A stretch of DNA of 39,731 bases from a virus (lineage: Duplodnaviria; Heunggongvirae; Uroviricota; Caudoviricetes), in IMG/VR virus record IMGVR_UViG_2718218171_000002, positions 1 through 39,731 of that record. One strand, 5' to 3'. Positions 2,054 to 8,444 of this stretch are shown piece after piece. A program made the position numbers and the translations under genes. The number at the start of each line of letters is the position of its first letter. Positions within the stretch are counted from its first letter, which is position 1. The notes beneath the pieces were generated by a model that did not search any database, was not told the DNA's origin, and saw only the letters and a program-made list of their open reading frames with translations.

Positions 2054-2724
2054 GATGCCTCTCCTTTACATGCTTCGGTGACGTTTATTCCAGCGTTGTG
2101 CAGTGCCTCAAGAACCTGATGCTGCCTGTAAACCATTTCAGTGTGGTAAGGCTCGTCAAAATCGACGCGATGCAACATGCTATAGCATTGCGGAAGCACA
2201 ACCTCCCGCAACTCCAGCTCAGCAATGCGCTTCTCTGCGGCTTCCAGCTTCTCGCGCATATCATCAACGTACTCGACCAGAGATCCGCCAGCAGGAATTT
2301 CGCACTCCTCGACCAGTTGGAAGTAGATATCAGCTGCGGCCCGTGTGCTGCTATGCCTAGCGTCGCCCATCTCACCTTCACGAAGAGCATCGCGTTCGGC
2401 GGTAAGATTGGCTATTTTGCTGTCTTTGCCTTCCAGCTCAACGCGCAGCTTCCCTACCGTTAGCGCAATTTCCTCGTTCTCCTGGTCGCGGGATTTGATG
2501 TATTGCTGGTTCCTTTCCCGTTCATCCAGTAGTGCCAAAGCAACCTTTGGATTAAAGGCAGCAATAAATTCAGCGTTGTTTTTCAGAACGTGTTGCGTAA
2601 TCGCCTGACTACTTAGTCGGACCTCATAACCACGTGCGCCACGGTGTGGTTTATATGAGTCCCAGTCTCCCCACGTTGCCTTCTCTGCCGCCTCACGCAG
2701 TGCCTGATAGTCAATCTTGCTCAC
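2050..2724 (-). CDS. Ead/Ea22-like protein
   Basis: 224 aa; N-terminus [16 protein letters not shown] and coiled-coil resemble Ea22-like prophage proteins; GTG start with AGGAGG RBS. Confidence 0.55.
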   Translation of the reverse strand: MSKIDYQALREAAEKATWGDWDSYKPHRGARGYEVRLSSQAITQHVLKNNAEFIAAFNPKVALALLDERERNQQYIKSRDQENEEIALTVGKLRVELEGKDSKIANLTAERDALREGEMGDARHSSTRAAADIYFQLVEECEIPAGGSLVEYVDDMREKLEAAEKRIAELELREVVLPQCYSMLHRVDFDEPYHTEMVYRQHQVLEALHNAGINVTEACKGEAS

Positions 2725-3260
2725 TGGTTTCCTCCTTTGCGAAGCTGGTCGGCGAACAAACGTACACCAGACGCTTCACTGCGTAGAAACTTAACGGCAT
2801 AATCAAAACCACCTCGTTCTGCGTCGTCTGCTCCGTTGTCGAGGTTATCTGCGTACATCTCTACCCCCTGCGCCCGTACTTCAGCCAGGAAAGCATCGGT
2901 GGCTTGGGTTTCTTCAAGCGCTCGCTTAACCTTTTCCTCAGCTTCGCAAATTGACTGAACCCAGAAGTCAGCGTGAGGTGGCCTGCCTGCCTTTTTTATC
3001 TCCGCACGAAGCTCAATTTGCTGAGTTACCGCAGATTTCAGCCTCGCATTCTCCGCCGCCAGCGCCTCGCACTTGGCTTCAAGGTTATCAATCGTGATTC
3101 CGGAAGAACGACACTCACGAAACGCCGTTTCTAGTTTTGATTCAAGTTCACCGAACTTACGCACCAGATATTCAGCGTTTGTTTCGTTAACCTTTAAATC
3201 ACTTGGGATGCATTTACCTTTCAGAAATCCATCCATCTCAATTAGTGACATTTGTTTCAT
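2721..3260 (-). CDS. hypothetical coiled-coil protein (179 aa)
   Basis: ORF in operon context; ATGA overlap with upstream small ORF. Confidence 0.5.
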
Positions 3261-3421
3261 TTTTTCCCACTCCGCAACATCGCATTCAGATATTTGTTTT
3301 GATTTACTGACGGAAAAGAATTTCTCTTAAGCAATTCCTCTCTCGATGGCATTGGCTTTACGCGTTGGCGAATAATCATTTCTGCCGGAAGAATGCCGGG
3401 ATTGTATGCAAGTCCTCTCAT
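3257..3421 (-). CDS. small hypothetical protein (54 aa)
   Basis: ATG preceded by AGAGGA RBS; stop overlaps next start (ATGA); below the ORF-track length cutoff. Confidence 0.3.
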
Positions 3422-3437
3422 GGTAAATTCCTCTTTG

Positions 3438-3752
3438 TTAATTTATTCGTATGCCTGCTCTTTCTTCATCGAGTTTTTTTAGCTTGTATCGCATAGCTCT
3501 TACTGAATAAATTGAGCGGCAGGTTGCAATTGCTATTTCTTCTGCGGAGAACTTACCGAAAAGTGATACTTCGGCTCTTGTCCAGCGTCTTCCACGAAGT
3601 CGGCTAACAATGTCAGCGCCAATCCTTGTTGCTTTCGCCATAACTGCTTTTTCAGTCCTTTCCAGTTTTTCAGCGATAACTTCAACTGGCATTGTCGCCG
3701 CTACTTCGCGCAAGAAATCGACTTCCCATTTCTCCCATGGAGTCTTTTTCAT
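3438..3752 (-). CDS. hypothetical protein with two internal W-x-x-x-E-V repeats (possible DNA-binding)
   Basis: 104 aa; repeated WEKWEVDFL and WTRAEVSLF segments. Confidence 0.45.
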
Positions 3753-3763
3753 AGGCGATACCG

Positions 3764-4246
3764 TTATTTGATAAGAAGTGAAGGTTTCCCAACTTTGAGT
3801 TGAGCACCGGGGATATTTATTCCTGCTTTTAGTTGGTGTTTGATTGCCAGTTTGTCGGCTTTAATTGTCGTTTCGAACTCAACGTATTCAGGAGGAAGGG
3901 CGCTTGAGTCGATGATTTCTACAGTTTCTGACGGTTTGCGGATTGTTACCTGGTGAATACCTGCTCGAATCTTTTTCTTGCCAACCATTTCAAGCGATGA
4001 CGCTATATACGCCATAATGCTGTCAATCTTATTTTGAATTACTACGGCTCGCTCATTTAGTGACTTTGCCTCTTCCTTGAGGCGTTCAGCATAACCAGAT
4101 TCATTTTTAATAATGGCGAGAAGTTGCTCTATTTTATCGGTAAATTCTCCTTCCATGCCTTCTATTGTGTCAGCAATCATCTCTGGTTCTAAATCTGAAT
4201 CCATCAATTTTGCGTATTCATTGGCAATTTCATACAGTTTGCTCAC
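3764..4246 (-). CDS. Gp157-family (siphovirus Gp157-like) protein
   Basis: Size and sequence resemble the Gp157 family often encoded next to recT; start assigned to GTG 6 nt after a GGAGG RBS. Confidence 0.5.
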   Translation of the reverse strand: MSKLYEIANEYAKLMDSDLEPEMIADTIEGMEGEFTDKIEQLLAIIKNESGYAERLKEEAKSLNERAVVIQNKIDSIMAYIASSLEMVGKKKIRAGIHQVTIRKPSETVEIIDSSALPPEYVEFETTIKADKLAIKHQLKAGINIPGAQLKVGKPSLLIK

Positions 4247-5132
4247 TGGCAACCTCCAGTTTCGCTTTGCATTCTATGTAAATGGCTTGTACGTTCTGCT
4301 GCAATTTCATTCCAGATGTCAGGCGATATGCTTCTGCAAAATATCGCTTCAAATCGTCCATGTTTTCTGCCTGAGCCATTTCATCGCAAAGAAGTTGTGC
4401 TTTATCCATTATTTCCTGCTGGCGTTTCCGTTCATCTTCGCGGATATCTTCCTCTGATTTGTGCGGCATAACTGGTTCCTGATGCATACCTTCATCTTCG
4501 TTAAGAAGGTGAATGGCATTATCCAGTCGCTGGGCTTTAGGCCAGTATTTGCTGGCGCGTTTAACTATTGTTTTACGCGCCATCTCTTCCCAGAATGTTT
4601 TCCACGGTCCATTCTTTGCCTTGCTCGTTGCTTCCACAGCTTTAATTTCTGCCAGACTCATTTCTTCAGTCAGGTAGTCACCATCTGCTGTTTTAACCGT
4701 GCAATAACCTCCAACAATAGAGCCTCGCTCACCAAATGCGTTGTATTTGTGGGTTGGTGCTGAATCAAGGCCATTTGATTCATAGGTGTCGTTTGAGTAC
4801 ACCAGTTTGCATTGCCCCCACTTAATTGATCCTGTCGATTGCGCAAGATGAAGTAATCCCATGTAACTGATATCAAGGCACACCATGCCGTCGCGAGGAA
4901 CCAGATAAGCCAGTTTGCTGGCCGGGTTTAAGGTGATGCCGATCGCCGCAACATTGATGATGGCGTTCTGTGCGCTGGTTGGATTTGCCAGTGCTGTTTT
5001 AGCCAGGTAATCGTTTTTCTGGAAATACTGAATTGCAAACTGGCTTTCCTTAGCCCATGTCACCGTCTGTTCAGTCAATGCTCCGCAGAATAACTGCTCT
5101 TGCTGTTTAACGAATTCAACGATATTGCTCAT
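4230..5132 (-). CDS. recT: RecT-family single-strand annealing recombinase
   Basis: 300 aa; conserved NGPWKTFWEEMARKTIVKRASKYWP block matches the RecT family. Confidence 0.8.
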   Translation of the reverse strand: MSNIVEFVKQQEQLFCGALTEQTVTWAKESQFAIQYFQKNDYLAKTALANPTSAQNAIINVAAIGITLNPASKLAYLVPRDGMVCLDISYMGLLHLAQSTGSIKWGQCKLVYSNDTYESNGLDSAPTHKYNAFGERGSIVGGYCTVKTADGDYLTEEMSLAEIKAVEATSKAKNGPWKTFWEEMARKTIVKRASKYWPKAQRLDNAIHLLNEDEGMHQEPVMPHKSEEDIREDERKRQQEIMDKAQLLCDEMAQAENMDDLKRYFAEAYRLTSGMKLQQNVQAIYIECKAKLEVASEQTV

Positions 5133-5440
5133 GCAGCTTCTCCATAAATATGTCTGCGTTTGAATATTGCGAAGGCATATTCAGCCTTAACTCTTTCGGT
5201 TATTGCATCCCAGAACCATTCAGCGGCTTTTTCCTGATAGTTACAGTCATCATCTTCCAGCCAGTCGATAGCGTCCTTAGTGTGTTCATCTGGTTTATAT
5301 GAGCGAAGCATTTCGCTTATTGGGTCGCAACGTTTGCAGAGGCGATCAACTTCACTGTTGATTCGTTCGTAATCATCATCGGTAAAACTTGCGATGATTT
5401 GCGATATTTCACGCTTATCATTCAGAGTCAGAATCATCAT
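5129..5440 (-). CDS. hypothetical acidic protein (103 aa) in the gam-like position
   Basis: Translationally coupled (ATGA) immediately upstream of recT; acidic composition. Confidence 0.5.
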   Translation of the reverse strand: MMILTLNDKREISQIIASFTDDDYERINSEVDRLCKRCDPISEMLRSYKPDEHTKDAIDWLEDDDCNYQEKAAEWFWDAITERVKAEYAFAIFKRRHIYGEAA

Positions 5441-5521
5441 CTTTCTCCTGTTCTTTGTGCTGATTGAGCATTTTGTTCATCTGACGAATGAATTCTTCGT
5501 CTGACCAGTTATCTGTAAAAC

Positions 5522-5674
5522 TCATTTCCTGCGATACCACGGAATGTTGATCGCTGATTTCATCGCTTTATTTGCTTCAAGCCACATTTTGGAATCACCA
5601 ATAAATCTGGCTATTACTGCTTTGTTTTGTGCTGCACGAAGCATCTGGTGATTGATGGCTATTTCATTGCGCAT
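5522..5674 (-). CDS. small hypothetical protein (50 aa)
   Basis: ATG preceded by GGAGG RBS; stop overlaps another short ORF start; below ORF-track cutoff. Confidence 0.3.
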   Translation of the reverse strand: MRNEIAINHQMLRAAQNKAVIARFIGDSKMWLEANKAMKSAINIPWYRRK

Positions 5675-5876
5675 AACGCCTCCAGTTGTTTCTTTGCTGC
5701 TCTGATTAATTGTTTAACTCGGCGTGATAATTCAGATTCGTGCGGGTAGAAAGCGGACATGACGCCGCTACCCGCGAGCTGAAAGTGCATCATGGGTAAC
5801 TCCTTATATTTGATTGCATAACGAAAACGCCTCGAGTGAAGCGTTATTGGTATGCGGTAAAGCCGCGCTTGGCGGC

Positions 5877-6293
5877 TTATTTGAAGACTTCTATGAAATC
5901 AAGAACTGATGATATTTCGTGGTTGAACGATTTTCTTTTGTATCTTTCTATCGCAGAGTCTACCTGGTGTTTATAGTCATCGTCGTTTGAGTATTTAACG
6001 AAGCATTCTATTGTCTCAGGCGTTACAGCTATAAGGCTCCACCAACCTTCATCAGATTGATATTCAAATCCCATGCTTTCAAGCCATCCAGCATATTTCC
6101 CTCCAGCATCTTGCCAGTGTGTCTTTTCTGCAAGGAAGCTGTTAACCGTCATATGTGCATCAAGGCATTTATCCAACTGTTTACCATTAAGTAGCCATGC
6201 GCTGACAGTTGCACATCCCAAATCAACTGATTGAGTAGAGATATTGAATTGGTCGTAATTATCTGGATTAACCAGAATATCTGTAATTTCCAT
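5877..6293 (-). CDS. hypothetical acidic protein (138 aa)
   Basis: Start taken at MEITDIL (ATG 6293..6291) preceded by GGAGG RBS; upstream terminator hairpin. Confidence 0.5.
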   Translation of the reverse strand: MEITDILVNPDNYDQFNISTQSVDLGCATVSAWLLNGKQLDKCLDAHMTVNSFLAEKTHWQDAGGKYAGWLESMGFEYQSDEGWWSLIAVTPETIECFVKYSNDDDYKHQVDSAIERYKRKSFNHEISSVLDFIEVFK

Positions 6294-6303
6294 AATTCCT
6301 CCG

Positions 6304-6332
6304 TCAAAAAAATTGCCCTCACACTGGAGGGC
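6304..6332 (-). terminator. intrinsic terminator inside early-left operon
   Basis: Stem GCCCUC/GAGGGC followed by U7 on the minus-strand transcript. Confidence 0.5.
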
Positions 6333-6428
6333 AAAGAAGATTTCCAATAATCAGAACAAGTCGGCTCCTGTTTAGTTACGAGCGACATTGCTCACATAGC
6401 AGACTCGTAAATCTGCTATAGGTGCTTA

Positions 6429-6584
6429 TTCGCATCGCGTGACAACATCAAATTTTTCGAGATTACTTTGTCGCAACAATCCTTCTTCTACGCGGTCAGC
6501 TTTTCTATAATTATCAAATTCGAAATGTTTAATTACTTCTTTTGTTTCTCGCTCTATAACTTCAACAATGTATTTCTTATTCAT
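6429..6584 (-). CDS. small hypothetical protein (51 aa)
   Basis: ATG overlaps stop of upstream gene (ATGA); below ORF-track cutoff. Confidence 0.3.
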
Positions 6585-6880
6585 CATTCTTCCCCAAGAG
6601 CTTTTCTGATTGCTGCAAGACCTTTATTAACAGCTCCATACCATTCTGGATATGTTGTCGTTGTTCTATTTTTGGTTTGCTTAAGTAATAACTGAAGTGC
6701 TTCGAGAAGGTCAGGTGCTGCCGCTATTAGATTGGCATCTTCAATGCATTGAACTTCCTCACAGATTGCAATATACGAACGCCAGCCTGCGCCATTTTCA
6801 AGTGAGTCTGCCTGGATTATTTTAATCTCGTCGCCATCCATCATTATTTCCCACTTGCCTTCAGTACCTTTAAATTCCAT
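6584..6880 (-). CDS. hypothetical acidic protein (98 aa)
   Basis: AGAGGA RBS; contains LIAAAPDLLEAL motif seen in small prophage proteins. Confidence 0.5.
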   Translation of the reverse strand: MEFKGTEGKWEIMMDGDEIKIIQADSLENGAGWRSYIAICEEVQCIEDANLIAAAPDLLEALQLLLKQTKNRTTTTYPEWYGAVNKGLAAIRKALGEE

Positions 6881-6899: not shown

Positions 6900-6935
6900 G
6901 CCAAAAATAAAGGCCACCATCAGGCAGCCTTGTTG
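6900..6935 (-). terminator. intrinsic terminator (minus strand)
   Basis: 7-bp stem with two G-U pairs, UGAU loop, then UUUAUUUUU; sequence-related to the hairpin at 515-540. Confidence 0.45.
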
Positions 6936-7171
6936 TAAATGTTGCAGGTATCAAGTAAGTAATTAGATGGAGCGCCATAAATTATGAATTCATCGTTTGT
7001 CGGGTCCATCTCCATCTCTTGGCCTATTGCCATTCTTGCGTCAGTGTCGTCAGCGGCGAAGCATAAAACAGCCCACGCCCCCATTGTTTTAAAAAGAACT
7101 GCAATTGGCTGTGGTTTTACTGAATTTGCGTTAGCGCGAAAATCATAAATCGCACTTTCATGAAATTCCAT
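6920..7171 (-). CDS. hypothetical acidic protein (83 aa), first gene after N
   Basis: GAGGTG RBS; position corresponds to ral-like genes in lambda but no clear similarity. Confidence 0.5.
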   Translation of the reverse strand: MEFHESAIYDFRANANSVKPQPIAVLFKTMGAWAVLCFAADDTDARMAIGQEMEMDPTNDEFIIYGAPSNYLLDTCNIYNKAA

Positions 7172-7179
7172 ATATCACC

Positions 7180-7479
7180 TCAAATAAGTGGTTTGCTGCC
7201 TAATTTCATTTTCTGGCGACCAACACAAGTCACACCCATTTCACTGCGTGGCTTGCGGTAGTAAATACGATTCTGTTTACGCTCGACTTCTTCTGCCTTC
7301 TTGCAGCGAAGGCTTCCGAGTGATGCTGCTTTATCTGCTCTGACGCAACCAGAGAGCTTTAGCGCAATTTTTCGTGCCAGTCGCTGCTCTTGCATTGCCT
7401 GTTCACGTTGAGCCTGTCTGCGTGCTCTGCGGCGATTTCTGGCGTTATCGTCAGCCAGATATGTAATGACTACTGTCAT
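7180..7479 (-). CDS. N-like transcription antiterminator
   Basis: 99 aa with N-terminal arginine-rich motif (NARNRRRARRQAQREQ); first gene of the leftward operon downstream of nutL; GGAGG RBS. Confidence 0.6.
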   Translation of the reverse strand: MTVVITYLADDNARNRRRARRQAQREQAMQEQRLARKIALKLSGCVRADKAASLGSLRCKKAEEVERKQNRIYYRKPRSEMGVTCVGRQKMKLGSKPLI

Positions 7480-7767: not shown

Positions 7768-7796
7768 AATAAAAAAAAGGGGCGAATGCCCCCTTA
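7768..7796 (-). terminator. intrinsic terminator at end of repressor gene
   Basis: Stem GGGGC/GCCCC followed by U8 on the minus-strand transcript, overlapping the c2 stop codon. Confidence 0.6.
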
Positions 7797-8444
7797 TGGA
7801 AGGTTTGCTAGTTTTGCATCGACAACTACGCCGATGATTTTGCAGTTTCCGTTGATCTCGATCATCGGATATTGTGGGTTAAGTGGTTTTAGAAACTTCC
7901 TGCCTGCATCAATAACTAACTTCTTGAAAGTTGCCTCGTTTTCTCCTTCGAGCTTTGCAACTACCAGTTTCCCGTTACGCGGCTCTACTTCAGGATCGAC
8001 GAGTATTATCATTCCTTCAGGGATACTGAGACCGGCCGGAGCCGTCATTGAGTCTCCCTTCACGTCCAACCAAAACGAATCTTCTGAACAGTCTACGGTT
8101 GTATCGTACCAGTTATCTATTGCACGCTTATGATATGGTTCTACAGCTTCCATCCAGCATCCTGCGCTCACCCAGCTAATCAGAGGGTATGACCCTCTTG
8201 GATCATGCCTACTGTGATAGGCAATGTTTGAAAGACTTTCCTCTCCTTTCATCAGATAGTCAGGGGAACACTTCAACGCATTAGCCAGGGCGAGAAGATT
8301 CTCTCCATTTGGCTCTGTCTCAGAGCGTTCCCACTGAGATATGGCAACATTAGACACGCCGACCATCTTTCCAAGTGCGGCCTGCCTGATCTTAAGTTCT
8401 TTTCTCCGAGCGCGAATGCGCTCTCCCATCAATTGAGTTTTCAT
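7794..8444 (-). CDS. c2: P22 C2-type prophage repressor (LexA-like, S24 peptidase fold)
   Basis: 216 aa, near-identical over its length to the P22 C2 repressor as remembered. Confidence 0.9.
   Translation of the reverse strand: MKTQLMGERIRARRKELKIRQAALGKMVGVSNVAISQWERSETEPNGENLLALANALKCSPDYLMKGEESLSNIAYHSRHDPRGSYPLISWVSAGCWMEAVEPYHKRAIDNWYDTTVDCSEDSFWLDVKGDSMTAPAGLSIPEGMIILVDPEVEPRNGKLVVAKLEGENEATFKKLVIDAGRKFLKPLNPQYPMIEINGNCKIIGVVVDAKLANLP

Follow-up and report, generated by a model that had tools for sequence, protein, structure and literature searches.

What does the small acidic gene that immediately precedes recT in a P22-like phage encode, and on what does its product act? The gene, here called ORF103 (open reading frame of 103 codons; positions 5129..5440, minus strand), lies in a stretch of 39,731 nucleotides from IMG/VR virus record IMGVR_UViG_2718218171_000002, referred to at its full length as the window. 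The window represents a temperate E. coli phage or prophage of P22-like (Lederbergvirus) type, most closely related to IME10, Dewey, Louie and Gally. An initial annotation, made from the sequence, had placed ORF103 in the position that lambda uses for gam and had proposed that it encodes either a RecBCD inhibitor or a recombination accessory factor. We find that ORF103 encodes an acidic protein of family PHROG 3486, predicted to be all-helical with a fold like that of lambda Gam. We put at about one half the probability that it is a diverged DNA mimic of the Gam fold, inhibiting RecBCD and produced shortly before the phage recombinase and in step with it. The kind of protein, the slot and the logic are already known; the sequence type would be a previously unrecognised one.

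ORF103 is coupled to recT and occupies the gam position

Counted from its first ATG, ORF103 has 103 codons and opens ATGATG. A GGAG Shine-Dalgarno sequence (SD; 5445..5448, minus strand), as read from the sequence, precedes both ATGs, at a distance of 4 nt from the first and 7 nt from the second, which is at 5437. Since homologs begin at this second methionine and the spacing from GGAG is better there, the true start is likely ATG 5437, to judge from the sequence, and the product would then have 102 aa. The protein has an isoelectric point of 4.64 and a net charge of -9.3, with 24 D+E against 15 K+R.

At the other end of the gene, the TGA of ORF103 (5131-5129) overlaps the ATG of recT (5132-5130) in an ATGA at 5129-5132, and a second GGAG (5140-5143) lies inside the last ORF103 codons, 7 nt 5' of the recT ATG. 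These elements make up a translational-coupling junction at 5129..5143 on the minus strand, and the acidic 103-aa frame joined to recT by ATGA is present as the initial annotation had described it. The downstream gene (4230..5132, minus strand) is identified as recT, encoding a single-strand annealing protein (SAP), by its match to Pfam PF03837 (E 2.5e-33); it also falls in PHROG 148 and in NCBIfam RecT.

The likeness to lambda in gene order holds as well. The window has cIII, kil, a small ORF, ORF103 and recT, against cIII-kil-gam-bet-exo in lambda, and ORF103 takes the gam slot, between kil and the strand-annealing gene. Of the two upstream genes, kil (5522..5674, minus strand; Pfam Lambda_Kil, E 1.7e-20) is the marker of the lambda-like order, and cIII (5659..5793, minus strand) is called CIII in matching phage records. 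In lambda a few bases stand between gam and bet, whereas ORF103 is coupled to the next gene by ATGA. No homolog of lambda Exo, YqaJ, RecE-like nuclease, Erf or Bet was found anywhere in the window, which agrees with the earlier claim that this RecT comes without a cognate exonuclease.

PHROG 3486 is a small family of Enterobacterales phages

ORF103 matches PHROG 3486 from end to end (E 2.6e-59, residues 2-103 on positions 1-102 of 102). The function of this PHROG is unknown, and ORF103 belongs to no Pfam or NCBIfam family; a Pfam match to HJURP_C at E 0.056 was taken to be noise. When 1.84 billion representative proteins were scanned exhaustively with HMMER, only 54 clusters (at 50% identity) were returned, nearly all of them of about 100 aa, so that PHROG 3486 is a small family, found in phages of Enterobacterales. 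Because these 54 clusters of homologs of about 100 aa exist, at 25-97% identity, ORF103 is not a chance ORF.

Homologs with 95-99% identity are carried by Kapi1, HK140, mEpX1, Gally, Louie, E212 and SEN22, and homologs with 29-49% identity by Cronobacter ENT47670, Erwinia Midgardsormr38 and phiEt88, and Pantoea PA-1. Among 5,426 complete E. coli genomes, 267 (~5%) carry the gene, always with the annotation 'hypothetical protein', and 'hypothetical' is the name given to family members in every source, the large protein collection included. Acidity holds across the family, with a net charge of -4 to -14 in all 36 aligned members. The most conserved residue is Q69 (32 of 35 sequences); A89, P40 and I27 are conserved too, A57, L61 and D65 are among the most conserved columns, and the C-terminus is conserved as E-[AV]-A.

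ORF103 homologs head recombination modules of several types

Across 14 distinct contexts, the gene that immediately follows the homolog is the first of the recombination module, and the two overlap, by 1 or 4 nt at every locus examined. The modules that follow consist of RecT and Gp157 (the window type, locus L009 and PA-1), RecT and YqaJ or Exo (ENT47670, Midgardsormr38, loci L010 and L013), Erf and YqaJ (locus L014), or a RecE-like DUF3799 nuclease with or without RecT (SEN22, locus L011 and phiEt88), and in several loci cIII and a Kil-like small ORF stand just upstream of the homolog. These varied partners argue for a host target over one specific phage partner. They also limit the reasoning of the initial annotation, which had held that an orphan RecT usually needs protection from RecBCD: RecT does stand without an exonuclease in the window, but the family equally precedes RecT+YqaJ, Erf+YqaJ and RecE-like genes, and the gene for the Mu-Gam-like protein gp157, discussed below, had been overlooked.

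All 11 of the 11 junctions inspected, with differing downstream genes, have an SD in the last 3-4 codons of the homolog together with an ATGA, GTGA or TAATG-type overlap. The conserved E-[AV]-A tail follows from this arrangement, since the SD and the start codon of the next gene are embedded there. We considered the tail as a functional element of the protein and rejected it for that reason; its confidence in the structural model is also low.

Two phages define the borders of the cassette. SEN22 shares positions 5525..5129 with the window (97% identity), and the two sequences part exactly at the ORF103 stop, after which SEN22 has a RecE-like gene instead of recT. Dewey shares 5855..5519 (cIII, kil) and 5134..3400 (recT, gp157 and a helix-turn-helix [HTH] gene) at 90% identity. 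In place of window positions 5518..5135 it has another cassette, the last gene of which is a lambda-type gam with a product 63% identical to lambda Gam. In Dewey, a true Gam and the same gp157 coexist. Taken together, the SEN22 and Dewey breakpoints indicate that ORF103 and the small acidic ORF upstream of it form an independent cassette that is interchangeable with gam. We rejected as the principal explanation a role of ORF103 as a RecT-specific partner, since the family also stands ahead of Erf and RecE-like genes and each border of ORF103 coincides with a mosaic breakpoint.

The predicted fold and a local motif point to Gam

AlphaFold2 models of ORF103 were all-helical, with a predicted local distance difference test score (pLDDT) of 80.5 from a 5-sequence input, and a pLDDT of 92.0 and a predicted template modelling score of 0.79 from a 36-sequence input. 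In the 36-sequence model the helices span residues 6-17, 21-35, 40-47, 54-64 and 66-102. The top structural match of the ORF103 model was Gam and no known mediator, with 15-16% identity in the structural alignment, and the predicted model has the helical build with about 90 ordered residues that marks the GamS fold. Size and charge are also alike: GamS has 98 aa and a charge of -9.9, phi80 GamL has 93 aa and -7.4, and ORF103 has 102/103 aa and -9.3. Foldseek against BFVD gave weak matches, the best (E 0.07) to an unnamed 107-aa protein.

Profile-profile comparison (hhalign) of the 36-member ORF103 family with a 19-member lambda-Gam alignment gave a local 27-column match between ORF103 residues 53-79 (HTKDAIDWLEDDDCNYQEKAAEWFWDA) and GamS residues 57-83, with P 8e-4 and a probability of only 25%. 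None of 400 column-shuffled Gam profiles, which preserve composition, reached the score of this match (23.4; best shuffle 19.9), and with the profile reversed the score was 8.8. Within the matched segment, A57, L61 and D65 align with invariant Gam residues, and Q69 lies inside it as well. In the window, the motif region shared with Gam lies at 5220..5282 on the minus strand (residues 53-73) and reads T-K-x-A-I-x4-D-D-D-x-x-Y-Q-E-x-x-A-E, which includes Q69; the one motif shared by the two profiles can be written A-I-x6-D-D-x-x-[YF]-Q-E-x-x-A-E. From the fold and this segment we infer that ORF103 may be a distant homolog of Gam.

These data suggest that ORF103 probably adds a third sequence type to the Gam-fold host-nuclease inhibitors that lambdoid Rec modules encode in the gam slot. 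It is not filed as a Pfam Gam member because it fails the PF06064 sequence match and lacks the N-terminal motif of Gam and GamL. The precedent is GamL of phi80 (PHI80_39, 'host RecBCD/SbcCD enzymes inhibitor'), a second divergent Gam-fold protein whose gene fills the same slot ahead of a RecT-type (SAP-4) gene; a survey of lambdoid modules (PMC12315714) regards GamL as sharing the fold of Gam and as its second sequence type. When Mog/Agt, its upstream partner, is missing, GamL is toxic, whereas no such 320-aa partner stands beside ORF103. A large structural screen has reported structural homologs of anti-RecBCD proteins without naming them (PMC10799925), and the ORF103 family may be among these.

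Five ORF103-bearing genomes are free of Chi sites

Homologs of Gam, GamL (by tblastn) and Abc2 were absent from every ORF103 locus, from the whole window and from the complete genomes of SEN22, ENT47670, phiEt88 and Midgardsormr38, and the same four genomes also lack gp157. In the 39.7-kb window and in these four genomes, the count of Chi (GCTGGTGG) sites is 0/0 on the two strands. About 6.5 sites would be expected in the five genomes together from base composition, and dinucleotide shuffling gives 1.17 for the window alone. According to the lambdoid survey, phages with an anti-RecBCD gene are mostly Chi-free, 14 of 21 phages that have a nuclease and a SAP and no anti-RecBCD gene carry at least 4 top-strand Chi sites, and the SEN22 type, scored without an anti-RecBCD gene, has 0/0 (PMC12315714). 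By their zero Chi counts, the phages bearing ORF103 behave like inhibitor-carrying phages, although as a sign of an inhibitor this pattern is suggestive only, because phi80 has GamL and yet 7/2 Chi sites.

The proposal of a RecBCD inhibitor in the gam slot has therefore gained from the predicted Gam fold, the local motif, the swap in Dewey and the lack of any other Gam, GamL or Abc2; the argument first given for it was weaker than its conclusion.

Proposed role of ORF103 and alternative explanations

We propose that ORF103 would be an early-expressed gene of the N-antiterminated early-left (pL) operon, coupled in translation to the recombinase gene that directly follows it. The product, probably a dimeric DNA mimic, would occupy the DNA-end binding site of host RecBCD as lambda Gam does. 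Such a block would protect linear phage DNA and recombination intermediates, and the phage RecT pathway could then operate.

Several results weigh against this role. HMMER linked no ORF103 query (the single protein or the 5- and 36-sequence profiles) to Gam in Pfam, NCBIfam or PDB: all 36 family members left PF06064 unmatched, even at E up to 10, and the family profile found no Gam chains among PDB sequences. The global alignment of the Gam and ORF103 profiles was not significant (28/250 shuffles); an N-terminal 'D-[KR]-x-E' resemblance to Gam is not claimed here, since this alignment is no better than shuffled controls. Nor was the match of ORF103 to phi80 GamL significant by hhalign (P 0.009, probability 4-5%). 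As a calibration, lambda Gam and phi80 GamL have only their N-terminal 26 residues in common (P 7e-7). The Gam/GamL motif of that region, MNAY..DR[IL]E..W, which GamL keeps, is not significantly aligned in ORF103. In the cryo-electron microscopy complex of Gam with RecBCD, the N-terminal Gam helix fills the single-stranded DNA channel of RecB and acidic side chains mimic duplex DNA (PMC5218532). The plug motif of this helix in lambda Gam (GamS; PF06064; PDB 2UUZ, 5MBV) is not kept in ORF103, where the region is predicted to form two short helices, so that ORF103 may bind differently or bind something else. In addition, the window module carries the Mu-Gam-like gp157 downstream of recT.

The gp157 gene (3764..4252, minus strand) encodes a Sipho_Gp157 or Mu-Gam-like protein with a putative role in DNA-end protection (Pfam PF05565, E 1e-36; PHROG 253, 'Mu Gam-like end protection'). 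In the accessible part of the survey of 325 lambdoid phages, it is scored as 'MuGam', the anti-RecBCD function of the HK140-type module (SAP-4 + MuGam, no nuclease), and ORF103 goes unmentioned there (PMC12315714). Mu Gam and Sipho_Gp157 thus represent a putative anti-RecBCD function within the same module, but they differ from ORF103 in size, at 160 aa, and in their Ku-like end-binding mechanism; ORF103 matches neither PF07352 nor PF05565.

The alternative that survives best, though we consider it unlikely, keeps the Gam-fold DNA mimic and gives it as main target another host DNA-binding nuclease or defence protein, such as SbcCD, Kiwa KwaB or an unknown system. The predicted fold and the acidity would serve this function equally well, and it would sit easily with an ORF103 that lacks the RecB-channel plug motif common to Gam and GamL. 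Lambda Gam itself acts beyond RecBCD, inhibiting Kiwa KwaB (PMC11785009) and reportedly affecting SbcCD (PMC5218532), gp157 could already cover RecBCD in the window, and the related locus L014 has the anti-defence gene Gad1 in the same operon region. A specific form of this idea, likewise doubtful, is a Gam scaffold minus the plug that has been retargeted to another DNA-end sensor or defence hub (SbcCD, a Kiwa-like KwaB or an undescribed one), or else a RecBCD inhibitor with a new binding mode; retargeting would explain why ORF103 co-occurs with a Mu-Gam-like protein. What speaks for RecBCD as the target is that ORF103 strictly heads recombination modules and is coupled to them, that true gam substitutes in the same slot, and that four complete Chi-free genomes show no other anti-RecBCD gene.

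Less probable still is a recombination accessory factor that would act with phage Rec proteins or host single-stranded DNA-binding protein (SSB), as a loader, a chaperone or a partner that sets stoichiometry, in the way proposed for P22 Arf/Abc1; its Gam-like fold would then be convergent. The small genes abc2, abc1 and arf of P22-like Rec modules are accessory, and modulate RecBCD or aid recombination. Such a factor would fit the tight coupling to the downstream gene, conserved in 11 loci, the constant place of ORF103 as the first gene of the Rec module and the weak sequence evidence for homology to Gam. It is hard to reconcile with downstream partners from three unrelated families (RecT, Erf and the RecE-like DUF3799 nuclease), with a cassette that recombines independently of recT in both directions, and with Gam, rather than any known mediator, as the top structural match. 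Given this variety of partner genes, the second of the two functions first suggested for ORF103 has become the less likely one.

An unrelated role, for example as a regulator, or that of an upstream cistron delivering ribosomes to the recombinase gene, is highly improbable: the embedded SD and start codon do account for the C-terminal E-[AV]-A, and Pfam, NCBIfam and PHROG give ORF103 no function, but a mere leader would not maintain conservation over the whole length down to 25% identity, a confident compact fold (pLDDT 92) and the conserved internal residues Q69, A89, P40 and I27.

If ORF103 is indeed a Gam-fold inhibitor of RecBCD, the 'hypothetical' gene of HK140, mEpX1, Kapi1, SEN22, ENT47670 and phiEt88 becomes the third sequence type of Gam-fold host-nuclease inhibitor. 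The census of lambdoid modules (PMC12315714) would then be corrected for HK140, scored there with MuGam only, and for the SEN22 type, scored with no anti-RecBCD function. The assignment would also help to explain the lack of Chi sites in ORF103 phages, and both RecT-based recombineering and Gam-based ideas of antibiotic potentiation would gain a compact component that blocks RecBCD. If instead the scaffold has been retargeted, phages scored without an anti-RecBCD gene (the SEN22 type and several with RecT+Exo) would have a counter-defence gene that has escaped recognition. For the bookkeeping of recombination modules and for recombineering the finding is useful; conceptually it is unsurprising.

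Organization of the early-left operon and related loci

On the minus strand, the early-left genes of the window run in the order cI, N, ORFs of unknown function, cIII, kil, a 35/40-aa ORF, ORF103, recT, gp157 and an HTH gene. The cI repressor gene lies at 7794-8444 and N at 7180-7479. Terminator-like hairpins on this strand are found at 7795-7776, just after cI, and at 6931-6910, 6334-6313 and 5845-5826, between the unknown early genes; counting both strands, the region has 11 such hairpins against 5.2 expected by chance. Presumably the early-left hairpins are N-antiterminated tL sites. No terminator-like hairpin was found on the minus strand between 5826 and recT. This layout fits N-antiterminated delayed-early expression, as for lambda gam.

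Between N and cIII lie three conserved early-left ORFs of unknown function (5877-6347, 6584-6880 and 6920-7171, minus strand; PHROGs 8967, 1273 and 2471), in an interval where lambdoid phages often keep anti-defence or host-takeover genes. The small acidic ORF between kil and ORF103 (5418..5540, minus strand) has 40 aa if it starts at GTG, or 35 aa from the ATG at 5525. It is very acidic (…KEQEKDDDSDSE), overlaps the start of ORF103, and matches PHROGs 17766 and 2123 over its N-terminal 20-32 residues.

Downstream of recT, the start of gp157 is ambiguous, with TTG 4252, GTG 4246 or an internal ATG as candidates, and records differ, giving the product 147 aa in Gally and 160 aa in Louie. Since PA-1 and L009 show conservation from residue 3 onward, the long form is favoured, and this form overlaps recT at its end. 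In Louie, an HNH endonuclease gene (1826-2293 of locus L006) stands between recT and gp157, breaks up a module that is collinear in other respects, and looks like a mobile homing-type insertion. The HTH gene that follows gp157 in the window (3438-3752, minus strand; 104 aa) is D5-like, PHROG labelling it 'transcriptional regulator, D5-like'; labels conflict here, as the Gally record calls the equivalent 'Anti-RecBCD protein 1, similar to P22 Abc1'.

Three observations concern other phages. The fourth BFVD match of the ORF103 model, A0A3G3BYC6, is an uncharacterised 104-aa protein of Edwardsiella phage Edno5 (template modelling score 0.47, E 1.6), which on this structural resemblance may be a more distant family member; the lambdoid survey lists Edno5 as SAP-4 + RecE with no anti-RecBCD (PMC12315714). 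In SEN22, the RecE-like gene is followed by a gene (5130-5699 of locus L002) for a 189-aa 'hypothetical protein' without an NCBIfam match, presumably the SSB scored for the SEN22 type (SSB + nuclease, no SAP) in PMC12315714. Finally, L014, a metagenomic Erf+YqaJ phage, encodes Gad1 (Gabija anti-defence, PF25705) at 2206-3180 of that locus, in the same early-left operon and just upstream of cIII, kil and the ORF103 homolog.
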